64,000 bases of DNA from Bacteroidota bacterium (GTDB lineage: Bacteria; Bacteroidota; Bacteroidia; Bacteroidales; FEN-979): contig VGGL01000002.1 of assembly GCA_016868575.1 (NCBI GenBank), positions 1,703-65,702 of the forward strand. Reading direction: 5' to 3'. The translations under genes and the position numbers were made by a program. Shown in pieces: positions 5,611-41,565 of this stretch (positions within the stretch are counted from its first letter, which is position 1; the number at the start of each line of letters is the position of its first letter). Under the pieces are notes generated by a model. It had not been told where the DNA came from and did no database searches. It saw only the letters and a program-made list of their open reading frames with translations.

Positions 5611-5613
5611 GGA

Positions 5614-5686
5614 CCCCACCCCTAGCCCCTCCCCCCTGCCCCCTCCCCACTCAGGGGAGGGGGAGAGGGGGGTGGGGCTGGAGGGG
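5614..5686. repeat. G/C-rich palindromic element, copy A (nrfH-nrfA intercistronic)
   Basis: Left arm CCCCACCCCTAGCCCCTCCCCCCTGCCCCCTCCCC, a 4-nt centre, then GGGGAGGGGGAGAGGGGGGTGGGGCTGGAGGGG. The left arm differs at 1 nt from copy B at 8239. Confidence 0.9.
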
Positions 5687-5700
5687 TAAAAAAAGAGTCT

Positions 5701-7867: not shown

Positions 7868-8818
7868 ATGGGCAATTTATCACCTGCGCACTGGCAGGAC
7901 TACGAAATCATTGATTCAGGTGGTCACGAGAAGCTGGAACGTTTCGGCAAATACGTATTACGTCGTCCGGAGCCACAGGCATTATGGCCGAAAGCTTTAA
8001 CGGAAGCCGAGTGGGAAAAACTTTCCGATGCCGCATTTTTTCGTACAAAGGGAAAAGAAGGAAAGCTGAGCGCCTCGGAGAGGGGGGAGTGGAAAACCCG
8101 CAGCAAGATCCCGGAACAATGGAGTATTCTTTACGATCATGATAGCCTGCGGTTGGTTTTCAACCTACGGCTCACCTCGTTTGGTCACGTCGGGATTTTC
8201 CCGGAGCAGGCGGGGAATTGGGAGTGGGTGTGTGCCAGCCCCACCCCCAGCCCCTCCCCCCTGCCCCCTCCCCTGATTGGGGAGGGGGAGAGGGGCCGGG
8301 GGAGAAGGGGAGGGGCTGGAGGGGTTCTCAATCTCTTCGCTTACACCGGTGGGTTTTCGCTTGCTGCACGTGCCGCCGGATATGATGTTGTGCATGTGGA
8401 TGCGGTGCGTAATGTGGTCAACCGGGCAAAAGAAAACATGGTTGCCAGCCACCTGGATCAGATCCACTGGATCGTGGAAGATGCCTTCAAATTCGTTCAA
8501 CGGGAAGTCCGCAGAGGTAAAAAATATACCGGAATTATCCTCGATCCCCCTGCCTATGGCCGGGGGCCGGAAGGTGAAAAATGGCTGCTCAGCGAACAGA
8601 TCGATGAAATGGTTAAGCTTTGCAGCATCCTGTTGGAACCTGAAAAGAGCTTCTTTATCCTGAATTTGTATTCCATGGGCTTTTCTGCAACCATTGCCGA
8701 AAATCTGGTTTTATCTCATTTTTCAGGGATCCGTGAGCTGACCTCAGGCGAACTTTATCTCCCTGACAGGGCTGGTCGGAAGCTCCCGCTTGGGGTATTT
8801 GTTAGGTTTCAGAGATGA
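7868..8818 (+). CDS. Class I SAM-dependent methyltransferase (RlmI-like, PUA-less type) carrying an in-frame palindromic-repeat insertion
   Basis: Motif I VLNLFAYTGGFS and IILDPPAYGRGP (motif IV-like). Residues about 124-152 (SPTPSPSPLPPPLIGEGERGRGRRGGAGG) are encoded by repeat copy B. Confidence 0.8.
   Translation: MGNLSPAHWQDYEIIDSGGHEKLERFGKYVLRRPEPQALWPKALTEAEWEKLSDAAFFRTKGKEGKLSASERGEWKTRSKIPEQWSILYDHDSLRLVFNLRLTSFGHVGIFPEQAGNWEWVCASPTPSPSPLPPPLIGEGERGRGRRGGAGGVLNLFAYTGGFSLAARAAGYDVVHVDAVRNVVNRAKENMVASHLDQIHWIVEDAFKFVQREVRRGKKYTGIILDPPAYGRGPEGEKWLLSEQIDEMVKLCSILLEPEKSFFILNLYSMGFSATIAENLVLSHFSGIRELTSGELYLPDRAGRKLPLGVFVRFQR
8239..8324. repeat. G/C-rich palindromic element, copy B (inside the methyltransferase CDS, reading frame preserved)
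   Basis: CCCCACCCCCAGCCCCTCCCCCCTGCCCCCTCCCC tgatt GGGGAGGGGGAGAGGGGCCGGGGGAGAAGGGGAGGGGCTGGAGGGG. Confidence 0.9.
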
Positions 8819-39696: not shown

Positions 39697-39751
39697 AAGT
39701 CTGAAACCAAAAGTGCAAAGTGCAATATATTACACTTTGCACTTTAGACTT
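39697..39751. terminator. Long hairpin (arms contain AAGTGCA AAGTGCA heptamers), 8 nt downstream of the tRNA-Arg 3' end
   Basis: AAGTGCAAAGTGCAAT (39711-39726) pairs with ATTACACTTTGCACTT (39729-39744) with one C-A mismatch. There is an outer AAGTCT/AGACTT stem and no U-tract on either strand. Confidence 0.4.
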
Positions 39752-39758
39752 GTCGTCG

Positions 39759-39830
39759 TAGCCCCGCCGGGAATCGAACCTGGATCTGAAGTTTAGGAAA
39801 CGTCTGTTCTATCCGTTGAACTACAGGGCC
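39759..39830 (-). tRNA. tRNA-Arg (anticodon CCU), with two non-Watson-Crick stem pairs
   Basis: GGCCCTG TA GTTC AACGGATA GAAC A GACGT TTCCTAA ACTTC AGAT CCAGG TTCGATT CCCGG CGGGGCT A. The cloverleaf folds, but there is a C-U pair in the anticodon stem, an A-C pair in the T stem, and two G-U pairs in the acceptor stem. Confidence 0.7.
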
Positions 39831-39835
39831 GTTTA

Positions 39836-39887
39836 CCCCCACCCCCAAACCCCTCCCCCAATTGGGGGAGGGGCAGGGGAGGGGGTG
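39836..39887. repeat. G/C-rich palindromic element, copy C (short form) between the promoter box and tRNA-Arg
   Basis: CCCCCACCCCCAAACCCCTCCCCCAA TTGGGGGAGGGGCAGGGGAGGGGGTG. The inner 12 bp are perfectly palindromic. Confidence 0.85.
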
Positions 39888-39895
39888 CAAAGGTA
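39888..39895 (-). promoter_or_regulatory. -7 promoter box TACCTTTG, displaced 58 nt from the tRNA-Arg 5' end by repeat copy C
   Basis: The reverse complement of caaaggta matches exactly. The other two tRNAs have their box 11-14 nt from the mature 5' end. Confidence 0.45.
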
Positions 39896-39933: not shown

Positions 39934-41565
39934 TTACTTCCCTTCCGCCGGCAGCAGATCTTTCGTCTTCAGCTTTGCCGGCTTGAATATGCCAAGCGCC
40001 CCGTTAATTCCAACGCTCATGATGATATTATAGAGGAAAGCAAGAAATGCCAACAGCAGAAATACCCCGCAAATGCCAGCAAGGATCATGTAAATATTGA
40101 ATTCTCCATCGACATAGATTGCACGCCTCAGCATACCTTTCAAACCAGCCATACCCATAAAAGCCCCCATGCCGATCCCCCCAAGAAGATGTGCCCAAAA
40201 GTGGAAATTGGCGAGTTTCTGACTATACCATTTCGCCCCGTTGGTAAGGATAGGGAATAAGAAGTATATCGCAGCATAAAGAGTCATGGTCAAGCCGACC
40301 AGCACGGCAACATGCACATGTGGACCTACTACCCATTGGGTGTTGTGAAGAATCCGGTTCAACCCGAGATCAGCCTGCAAAATTCCACAGGGAACAGCTA
40401 GGGCAAACCCCAGTAAGCCCCCAAGTAGGAACTTCAATGGGTTGGTCATCTTTAAAGGCCGGGCACTCCATAAAGTAACCAGGGTAATGAAAAACGCCAA
40501 CCCCTGGGTGACTAGCTCGAAAGCAGTAACCATTTCGCCGGAGACAACCTTCAGGATGCCCGGTTGTGCCTGATCCGATAACAGGTGATGAGACCAAACG
40601 GTCCATGAAACAACCAGTTCCACAAACAAAGCTGCACGCGCCCAATTCTCCATAAATAACTTCTTTCCGGTGATAAGCGTGGCAAGAAGATACCAGGCAC
40701 CGGCCACGAAAATCAGCACCGCACCGTCTGCGATCAGATCCAACCCCCACCAAAACCAGTTCTTGTATAGCAATGCATCAATGGCCGTAGATTTCAGGCT
40801 AATGCCTCCAATTTCCCAAAGCATGTAAATAAGAATAAGTACGCCGGTAAAAGTGATGATCAGCGCATTGAGCAGAATATCGACCGTCCCTCTTGCGATA
40901 GCCGCCACCGGAAGTGGTACCAGGTGTTCTTTTTTGTTCTTTCGGAAAATATTCTGTGAACCACTTATCCCAAGCGCCGATATCAATAACGCCCCGGCAG
41001 GTTGTTTATCCCACCCATCAGGTGTGTAGACGATGGTTTTAAAAATATTCACCACAAAAATCAGCGTGCCAACCATGATCAGCGCAATTCCAAAGATGAA
41101 AACCGCTCCGCCAACTGCACTGAACTGGGTGAAATCTGCCGGTAAAGGCCAGTAGAGGGTGTATAAGGGGGCATAGTGTGAGAGGAAACCGGCAGACCAC
41201 ATCACAATAGTTCCAATGGTAATCAGAAAGAAAGTCCAGTTGGCCGCTTTGATACTCCACAACGGCTTCTTCATCAGAAAAGGAACCAGGAATAAAAACG
41301 CACCAAAAACAATCATATATGTAGACCCAAAAATGCCGACCAGCGGATGGGCGGTCATCATGGCAAAGAAATGTTTCTCGTTCATTATCGGAATGGGCGT
41401 GATCTCATAGATCCGCATGATCATCCCTTCAATGGCCGCAAACGCATAGTAAACAAGTCCAACCACCACAAACCGGAGGGTGATCTTCTGCATAGGGGTA
41501 AGTGTATCTGCCTTGAATATCCCCTGTTCTCCATTTAGCAAAGTATTTATGTAATTCATATTCAT
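39934..41565 (-). CDS. Heme-copper oxidase superfamily subunit I homologue with a non-canonical active site (putative gNOR-like NO reductase)
   Basis: 12-TM protein. It has H73 (TAHPLVG), H326-H327 (VWSHHLL) and H416/H418 (GPHVHV). Helix VI reads WFWWGLDLIADG instead of W(F/W)xGHP(E/I)VY. No His occurs between residues 254 and 325. Confidence 0.8.
   Translation of the reverse strand: MNMNYINTLLNGEQGIFKADTLTPMQKITLRFVVVGLVYYAFAAIEGMIMRIYEITPIPIMNEKHFFAMMTAHPLVGIFGSTYMIVFGAFLFLVPFLMKKPLWSIKAANWTFFLITIGTIVMWSAGFLSHYAPLYTLYWPLPADFTQFSAVGGAVFIFGIALIMVGTLIFVVNIFKTIVYTPDGWDKQPAGALLISALGISGSQNIFRKNKKEHLVPLPVAAIARGTVDILLNALIITFTGVLILIYMLWEIGGISLKSTAIDALLYKNWFWWGLDLIADGAVLIFVAGAWYLLATLITGKKLFMENWARAALFVELVVSWTVWSHHLLSDQAQPGILKVVSGEMVTAFELVTQGLAFFITLVTLWSARPLKMTNPLKFLLGGLLGFALAVPCGILQADLGLNRILHNTQWVVGPHVHVAVLVGLTMTLYAAIYFLFPILTNGAKWYSQKLANFHFWAHLLGGIGMGAFMGMAGLKGMLRRAIYVDGEFNIYMILAGICGVFLLLAFLAFLYNIIMSVGINGALGIFKPAKLKTKDLLPAEGK

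Follow-up and report, generated by a model that had tools for sequence, protein, structure and literature searches.

In this work we have analysed a short G/C-rich palindrome which lies between the tRNA-Arg(CCU) gene and its putative promoter box in a genome of the Bacteroidales, together with related sequences in the rest of that genome and in other bacteria. The source genome, G000, is a metagenome-assembled genome of 2.84 Mb in 224 contigs. The window, by which we mean the whole 64-kb stretch of DNA that was analysed, is C2:1703-65702, that is, positions 1703-65702 of contig C2. At gathering thresholds Rfam recognized three tRNAs in the window and nothing else. The features of the tRNA-Arg locus are as follows.

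39888-39895, minus strand: -7 promoter box of the Bacteroidota type, TACCTTTG (TAnnTTTG), read from the sequence, with presumed promoter activity
39836-39887, both strands: double-sided G/C triplex-motif palindrome of 52 nt, identified by sequence, RNA fold and pattern match
39836-39885, parts of the palindrome on the plus strand: C2 39836-39846, AAA, C1 39850-39859, loop AATT 39860-39863, G1 39864-39873, CA, G2 39876-39885
39831-39835, minus strand: TAAAC, a 5-nt link from the hairpin to the mature tRNA 5' end, with 4 nt unpaired in the predicted fold
39758-39830, minus strand: tRNA-Arg(CCU) gene (anticodon CCT in ARAGORN; Rfam RF00005, 53 bits)
39710-39746, minus strand: hairpin with arms of the (AGTGCAA)n type followed by TTTT, a probable terminator 3' of tRNA-Arg which belongs to another repeat class

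Read along the minus strand, the order is TATACCTTTG / CACCCCCTCCCC TG CCCCTCCCCC AATT GGGGGAGGGG TTT GGGGGTGGGGG / TAAAC / tRNA-Arg. The segment CCCCTCCCCC AATT GGGGGAGGGG at 39850-39873 consists of a C-rich stem, a loop and the complementary G-rich stem, and a second, mirror G stem follows on either strand (GGGGGAGGGG TTT GGGGGTGGGGG on the minus strand and GGGGGAGGGG CA GGGGAGGGGG on the plus strand). The one-sided pattern C1-loop-G1-N-G2 is accordingly matched on both strands of this palindrome. The positions which the initial annotation had given for the box and the palindrome were confirmed, as were the boxes 14 nt upstream of tRNA-Val(CAC) and 11 nt upstream of tRNA-Cys; the long gap that it described in front of tRNA-Arg is real, measures 57 nt and is filled by the palindrome. 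Among the 29 tRNAs of G000 which have a box within 130 nt upstream, the distance is 7-24 nt in 23, with the box reading TAnnTTTG(CA). The longest plausible leaders are those of tRNA-Arg(CCU), with 57 nt, and tRNA-Ser(GGA), with 59 nt. The palindrome is present in each of them, and after its subtraction they are reduced to 12 and 11 nt, respectively, which is the norm in this genome. For the Arg leader a hairpin of 22 bp and -50 kcal/mol is predicted (z = -5.2 relative to dinucleotide-shuffled sequences, of which 0 of 200 equalled it); it leaves 4 nt unpaired in front of the tRNA and does not disturb the predicted acceptor stem.

Is this palindrome a local peculiarity or a member of a family? 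A scan of the whole of G000 for perfect stems of 8 bp, with six or more C on the left side and 3-8 nt in the loop, yielded 36 hairpins with C on the left and G on the right and only one of the opposite polarity, which proved to be the junction between two adjacent copies. Within the window, GGGGGAGGGG with at most one mismatch occurs 22 times against 7.4 expected, and this excess together with the genome-wide polarity of 36 to 1 shows that the pattern is not due to chance. The pattern C1-loop-G1-N-G2 has 16 strand-instances in G000 with stems divided 4-1-4 and 16 with stems divided 2-3-5, and the mirrored control has 0. Two subfamilies can be distinguished: the first reads CCCCCTCTCC-N4-GGAGAGGGGG, is flanked by GACCTCACCCCC / GGGGGTGAGGTC and often has the ends CAATGACC...GGTCATTG; the second reads CCCCTCCCC-N4-GGGGAGGGG with the flanks CCCCACCCC / GGGGTGGGG. 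Most copies are double-sided (C2-C1-loop-G1-G2), and therefore the whole element is one palindrome which carries the motif on both strands. A census of the terminal motif with one mismatch allowed gave more than 100 matches, many of them chance matches in coding DNA, and its totals were not used. We also observed, beside full palindromes (C23:12600-12665, C17:28460-28525 and C114:4403-4495), arrays in which only the outer arm (GGGGGGTGAGGTCATTG or its complement) is repeated in tandem, once every 23-30 nt or so, an arrangement like that of clusters of bacterial interspersed mosaic elements (BIMEs).

The family is thus not confined to the three sites in the window. According to a crude map of open reading frames (ORFs), 14 of the copies in G000 lie between tandem genes, 7 lie tail-to-tail, 2 head-to-head, 2 at contig edges and 7 inside ORF calls, with two sites clearly internal (a methyltransferase gene and hutI), and 4 are adjacent to tRNA genes, where random placement in non-coding DNA would give 0.37 (binomial P ~5e-4). 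The four tRNA-adjacent copies occupy the Arg-CCU leader, the Ser-GGA leader (in the order TACCTTTG-cagcccg-palindrome-actt-tRNA), the entire Pro(CGG)-Thr(CGU) spacer and the entire Tyr-Gly(UCC) spacer; their loops are AATT in three cases and ATTT in one, and elsewhere in G000 the loop TTGCA occurs three times. The three copies of the window had been placed in an intercistronic spacer, a coding sequence and a tRNA leader, and all three contexts hold. Besides the tRNA-Arg leader they are:

5612-5688: long copy which fills the nrfH-nrfA intercistronic spacer, fold of -67.6 kcal/mol
8238-8325: long in-frame copy in the gene of a SAM-dependent (S-adenosylmethionine-dependent) methyltransferase (7868-8818, plus strand), encoding about 29 amino acids

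Over 57 nt these two long copies are 89% identical, and the methyltransferase insert is placed just before motif I (VLNLFAYTGG). The second coding example is hutI, the imidazolonepropionase gene (TIGR01224, 419 bits), in which two adjacent in-frame palindrome copies (C58:4826-4905) encode about 28 amino acids (PHPLPPPLQGRAGEGSSPPQAGRGRGGA), which come after the N-terminal strand and before the metal-binding HTH motif.

To what extent has this element been copied? In 81 genomes of the same family, which include G000 and its relatives, the core of the motif is present in 149 copies against 1 for a control read backwards, and it is found in 40 of the genomes. Copy number ranges from 0 to 12 per genome, G000 having the most, and from 0 to 8 within a single genus; the core occurs in 9 of 11 genomes of genus g7 and in 0 of 11 of genus g12. 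Loops recur within a genome (TTCAA in all seven copies of G095, TTGGA three times in G088, AATT/ATTT and TTGCA in G000), which argues for copying because the stem places no constraint on the loop sequence. The seven copies of G095 are in fact one composite unit of about 150 nt, with around 90% identity, sharp borders, unrelated flanks and the palindrome at one end. In this composite (loci L281-L291) the palindrome is followed by TTAATTCCCCGTTGCTTGCAGCGGATTATAAAATAGAATTCAATTGATACCTCGCTGCTCTGCGGCGAGGAGATTCATT, which holds two further small hairpins; against Rfam at permissive thresholds the unit gave only sub-threshold matches to generic hairpins, and its tail was not found in G000. At orthologous sites the palindromes of G000 are distributed as follows.

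Arg-CCU leader: G000 only, in 0 of 27 other genomes with a readable locus
Ser-GGA leader: G000 only, in 0 of 23
Tyr-Gly spacer: G000 only
nrfH-nrfA spacer: G000 only, in 0 of 9 relatives
Methyltransferase loop: G000 and G001
Pro-Thr spacer: G000, G013, G008 and G004, representing four genera, with 55-57 nt, and also G064

Most of these copies are thus lineage-specific gains. For the Pro-Thr spacer, the congeners G001, with a spacer of 14 nt, and G015, with a different hairpin, are without the palindrome. The proposal that the element is mobile therefore stands insofar as its copies are dispersed and mostly without counterparts in relatives, congeners differ, loops recur and one relative carries a seven-copy unit. 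Target-site duplications, which were also expected of it, were not seen at six G000 sites inspected by eye or at the seven G095 copies; since the borders of the element are fuzzy, short duplications may have escaped notice. Likewise, an inserter into transcribed DNA resembling repetitive extragenic palindromic (REP) sequences or miniature inverted-repeat transposable elements (MITEs) agrees with the transcribed contexts, but not with the lack of visible duplications or of any link to transposases of the Y1 type. What we have is a copied, dispersed repeat in transcribed DNA which is without the testable features that define REP sequences mobilized by REP-associated tyrosine transposases (RAYTs) or a classical MITE.

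The orthologous slots themselves proved to be more variable than a comparison of filled and empty sites would assume. In many related genera the Arg-CCU leader measures 35-114 nt (exactly 58 nt in G010) and holds heptamer arrays of the (AATCGTA)n type in place of the palindrome; in other relatives it has only 4-18 nt, and in G020, of the repeat-free genus g12, the leader has 10 nt. Long spacing in front of tRNA-Arg is thus common in relatives without the palindrome, although others have it short, and since this is so the spacing alone is not evidence that a palindrome was inserted. In part, then, the spacing found in relatives contradicts the initial annotation, which had named it as a test of its interpretation. 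Palindrome-free slots were found, but many of them are long and filled with other repeats. Ser-GGA leaders range from 13 to 109 nt in relatives, and Tyr-Gly spacers from 12 to 224 nt with assorted arrays of 7-8-mers and hairpins. When the leaders of relatives were folded, only some were significantly structured. The loop of the methyltransferase carries tandem 7-8-mer arrays in six relatives and is short in four. We noted that in this PF10672 methyltransferase the arrays before motif I (L034-L041) are in frame and of unrelated sequence (GTCACGC, CTCACCA, GTCCCGC, GGCGGAAT and others), and the loop consequently differs in both length and sequence between genera. Because different repeats occupy the same positions in relatives, we regard these slots as permissive and hypervariable, which matches the 'genomic instability' reported at triplex-motif loci (PMC4666352). 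A long leader is thus a property of a hypervariable slot and not proof of one clean insertion.

Several other repeats were observed at tRNA genes of these genomes. Arrays of the (AATCGTA)n type directly precede the 5' ends of tRNAs in 10 or more genera of the family (tRNA-Arg-CCT at L002-L007, L015, L019, L021 and L026; tRNA-Ser-GGA at L261), and in G000 one is found upstream of tRNA-Ile (C11:38672-38720); the tandem heptamer is thus conserved in its sequence. At least nine tRNA genes of G000 are followed by near-identical hairpins with tandem heptamer arms of the (AGTGCAA)n type which end in TTTT; besides 39710-39746 they lie at C24:11330, C4:24550, C12:41500, C36:16885, C46:11390, C47:14000 and C68:3520, and they probably serve tRNA genes, and these alone, as a common bidirectional terminator module. 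In three relatives a one-sided copy of the motif begins no more than 5-7 nt past a TACCTTTG box: at L229 (G021) this lies upstream of tRNA-Leu(CAA), and L231 (G041) and L233 (G010) are orthologous copies in front of another gene.

The architecture of the palindrome is not without precedent. The repeats known as BoxC, later as PIT and later as TMECO, have been described as 'intrastrand triplex motif' repeats (Holder et al. 2015, Nucleic Acids Research 43:10126, PMC4666352, and Hoyne et al. 2000 as cited there), with the pattern CCCTCNCCC N3-6 GGGNGAGGG N3 GGGNGAGGG; in such a motif the mirror G stem would supply the third strand of a purine-motif triplex. According to the same study, E. coli K-12 has 23 TMECO copies, five of them as inverted pairs, and 262 proteobacterial genomes have 3610, with related G/C motifs in cyanobacteria; no transposase was ever found nearby, the mechanism of spreading is unknown, the loci are hypervariable between strains and the E. 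coli copies are described as 'always intergenic'. Our element has the same succession of a C-rich stem of 9-10 nt, a loop of 3-6 nt, a G stem, a loop of 2-3 nt and a mirror G stem, and the same strict polarity with C on the 5' side. It is likewise multi-copy and dispersed, with inverted pairs and no adjoining transposase, its copy number is patchy among close relatives and its loci are hypervariable, and the first G000 subfamily contains the E. coli words TCTC/GAGA and TGAG. It differs in that its copies are mostly double-sided, in that some of them occupy leaders and spacers of tRNAs or lie, in frame, within the methyltransferase gene and hutI, and in its host, the Bacteroidales, which PMC4666352 does not mention. 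Judged by its sequence, the element is a Bacteroidales, mostly double-sided variant of the known and still unexplained BoxC/PIT/TMECO class.

The motif is also widespread. We scanned one genome per GTDB species for the core pattern CCCCTCCCC N3-7 GGGGAGGGG, and the matches listed come from Sphingomonadaceae, Rhizobiales, Nostoc, Chloroflexus, Anaerolineae, Clostridia, Prevotella, Bacteroides, Hymenobacter and others. Inverted pairs are frequent among these matches, and most of them, in many phyla, have the outer tract CCCCACCCC or GGGGTGGGG, which the pattern did not require; because core and outer tract occur together across so many phyla among the listed matches, the motif family is not specific to one lineage. 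A further analogue may be seen in the repetitive elements of Methanomicrobiaceae which combine a putative quadruplex sequence (PQS) with a C tract and in which hairpin, triplex and G-quadruplex compete in vitro (Chashchina et al. 2021, PMC8044849). They share with our element the words GGGGTGGGG, GGGGAGGGG and CCCCTCCCC, four G-runs beside a complementary C tract and a dispersed, intergenic location, but they are one-sided, have the opposite polarity (the C tract lies 3' of the G runs) and are found in archaeal hosts. A literature search for ends of the ATGACCTCACCC type gave no match. With regard to position there is another parallel. Rickettsia palindromic elements occur in frame in protein genes, where surface loops tolerate them, and beside RNA genes; they are AT-rich, 100-150 nt long and not known outside Rickettsia. 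The G000 element resembles them in being a palindromic repeat in frame in genes and next to RNA genes, but is not known to have sequence or architecture in common with them.

Taken together, we consider it probable that the palindrome upstream of tRNA-Arg is a dispersed copy of a BoxC/PIT/TMECO-like repeat which occupies a permissive leader slot, that it arrived by copying independent of a Y1 transposase, and that it is neutral or mildly modulatory. Its arrival would have involved a copying mechanism which leaves no target duplication, most likely one driven by structure or microhomology, such as template switching or recombination at C-tracts. Most tRNA promoters of G000 read TAnnTTTGCACCC(C), so that CACCCC follows most tRNA -7 boxes; the same word stands 3' of tRNA-Pro and tRNA-Tyr, and the spacer copies open with CACCCCC right after the discriminator base. 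CACCCC at these places may have served as an insertion anchor. Transcription of tRNA-Arg would begin a few nucleotides downstream of the box and already within the outer C tract. The resulting leader would form a hairpin of great stability, which RNase P would remove together with the 5-nt link, probably with a neutral or mildly modulatory effect on the tRNA. If the upstream gNOR operon (stop at 39934) is read through and the transcript is cut by RNase P, the operon mRNA would end in the hairpin, which could protect its 3' end. We also considered whether the palindrome is a terminator and rejected this: it has no T-run and it lies inside operons and tRNA operons, which agrees with the absence of promoter and terminator activity of PIT elements in E. 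coli (Hoyne & Maher 2002, as summarized in PMC4666352).

Several points weigh against this explanation. The exact TMECO pattern has one match in G000 (on C121) and none at tRNA-Arg, and the stems are built 4-1-4 (GGGGAGGGG/GGGGTGGGG) or 2-3-5 (GGAGAGGGGG/GGGGGTGAGG) instead of 3-3-3; for these two reasons we speak of a variant, distinct from the family proper of E. coli. As long as the C arms are included, ViennaRNA favours the hairpin over a G-quadruplex, and the triplex class is a putative assignment from the sequence. Long Arg leaders pre-date the palindrome in this family, and it is as likely that the palindrome replaced an older repeat as that it was cleanly inserted. The set contains no second genome from the genus of G000, and for this reason no recent empty site is available there. 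The involvement of microhomology or template switching is conjecture. Lastly, the retention of the Pro-Thr palindrome in four genera and the enrichment at tRNA genes could mean selection and not tolerance.

Could the hairpins beside tRNA genes, then, be selected RNA structures which function in the precursors, the shared sequence being merely the preferred building material of this lineage? They might insulate the folding of neighbouring tRNAs from each other, help RNase III or RNase P to process the precursor or, as the GC-rich first part of the transcript, tune the output of the promoter. The roughly ten-fold enrichment next to tRNAs would fit such a role, as would the precision with which the hairpins are placed, starting 1 nt past the discriminator base or just past the box and ending 4-9 nt before the next tRNA. 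So would the retention of the Pro-Thr palindrome in four genera with 55-57 nt, the presence of other hairpins in the same slots of several relatives, and the succession of box and palindrome in G021 (before tRNA-Leu-CAA) and in G041/G010. However, slots of 3-18 nt without any hairpin are found even within the same family, both in the Pro-Thr spacer (G001, G003, G010) and in the leaders of Arg (G004, G013, G020, G023) and Ser (G004, G011), and many long leaders of relatives are unstructured repeat arrays with z ~0. The element also stands in protein-coding frames and mRNA spacers, and the inactivity of PIT as promoter or terminator, in the summary cited above, does not speak for such a function either. 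We therefore think it unlikely that selection on the RNA structure accounts for the element.

A broader proposal is that one common motif, from Bacteroidota to Clostridia, spreads by an unrecognized, structure-templated copying at C-tracts which needs no transposase, or else is kept by some universal machine. By sequence, Bacteroidota, Alphaproteobacteria, Cyanobacteria, Chloroflexota and Clostridia share the motif even to its outer CCCCACCCC tract, and C-tracts beside promoters and tRNA ends may be the targets of such copying. Candidates for the universal machine are RNA polymerase, a helicase or an RNase, and if this were true the copies which flank tRNAs would take an active part in the expression of precursor tRNAs and not be passengers. 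We would give this proposal only a small chance of being right.

The element might also be a classical MITE, that is, a non-autonomous transposon with terminal inverted repeats which is moved by a DDE transposase and generates target-site duplications. Many G000 copies do end in CAATGACC[T/C]CACCCC ... GGGGTGAGGTCATTG, and the 150-nt unit of G095 has, next to its sharp borders, weakly similar ends (ATGACCTCTCC and, reverse-complemented, AATGAATCTCC). But the ends CAATGACCTCACCCC / GGGGTGAGGTCATTG are the palindrome itself, the tRNA-adjacent copies lack the ATGACC ends, and neither the six inspected sites of G000 nor the G095 borders showed a visible duplication. A core which among the listed matches spans many phyla is unlikely to be served by a single transposase family, and no full-length parent element was found, the search having been directed at Y1 transposases only. 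This origin seems improbable to us.

Mobilization in trans by a RAYT of the Y1 (IS200/IS605-like) type encoded elsewhere in the genome can be judged more directly. REP sequences and BIMEs, which are associated with RAYTs, are short GC palindromes dispersed in transcribed spacers, occasionally in arrays. The initial annotation had noted that no RAYT/IS200-type transposase is present in the window, and this is correct: the three Y1_Tnp matches of G000, which might speak for such a mobilization together with the short GC palindrome and the BIME-like one-arm arrays on C23, C17 and C114, are all on other contigs (C47, C69 and C28). None of the three genes has the G/C palindrome within 450 nt, and the element ends show no GTAG or CGTC tag. 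Nor do transposase and repeat occur together in the 81 genomes (odds ratio 0.84, p 0.79, a descriptive test since the genomes are related); genera g7, with Y1 in 1 of 11 genomes, and g12, with Y1 in 11 of 11, have the opposite of the distribution of the repeat. The suggested search for RAYTs thus had an answer, namely that Y1 genes exist in G000 but are neither flanked by the element nor correlated with it, and they are not the explanation for this repeat. We regard a mobilization of this kind as very improbable. The gene on C47 (6216-6689, 157 amino acids, IS200/RAYT-like) has repeats of its own within its 450-nt flanks, AAGCCCCGAAGGGGCGGGAC on both sides and tandem CACAGGGCTTCGCCCTGGGTTCA downstream, and has the appearance of a REP/RAYT-like system of its own, with no relation to the G/C palindrome. 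Finally, each palindrome might have arisen where it stands, through slippage at a C-tract and copying templated by a hairpin, and the copies would then be similar by convergence. This finds some encouragement in arms made of short C-tract units, in the abundance of hairpins and arrays of tandem 7-8-mers of many sequences in G000 and its relatives, and in the CACCCC already present at tRNA promoters, but it is hardly credible in view of unconstrained loops which recur within genomes, shared stretches as long as 57 nt at 89% (G000) or 150 nt at ~90% (G095), a strict polarity and an outer arm which stays sequence-specific across phyla among the listed matches.

What does a Bacteroidales variant of these repeats offer? 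Some 30 years after BoxC, PIT and triplex repeats became known, neither their function nor the way in which they spread has been established. The Bacteroidales family adds defined positions inside transcripts, namely tRNA leaders, tRNA-tRNA spacers and the nrfH-nrfA spacer. It also adds in-frame copies in two enzymes, contrasts of presence and absence between congeners and a sharp-bordered 150-nt unit. Such sites provide handles both on the effects that these repeats have on transcription and RNA processing and on the copying itself.

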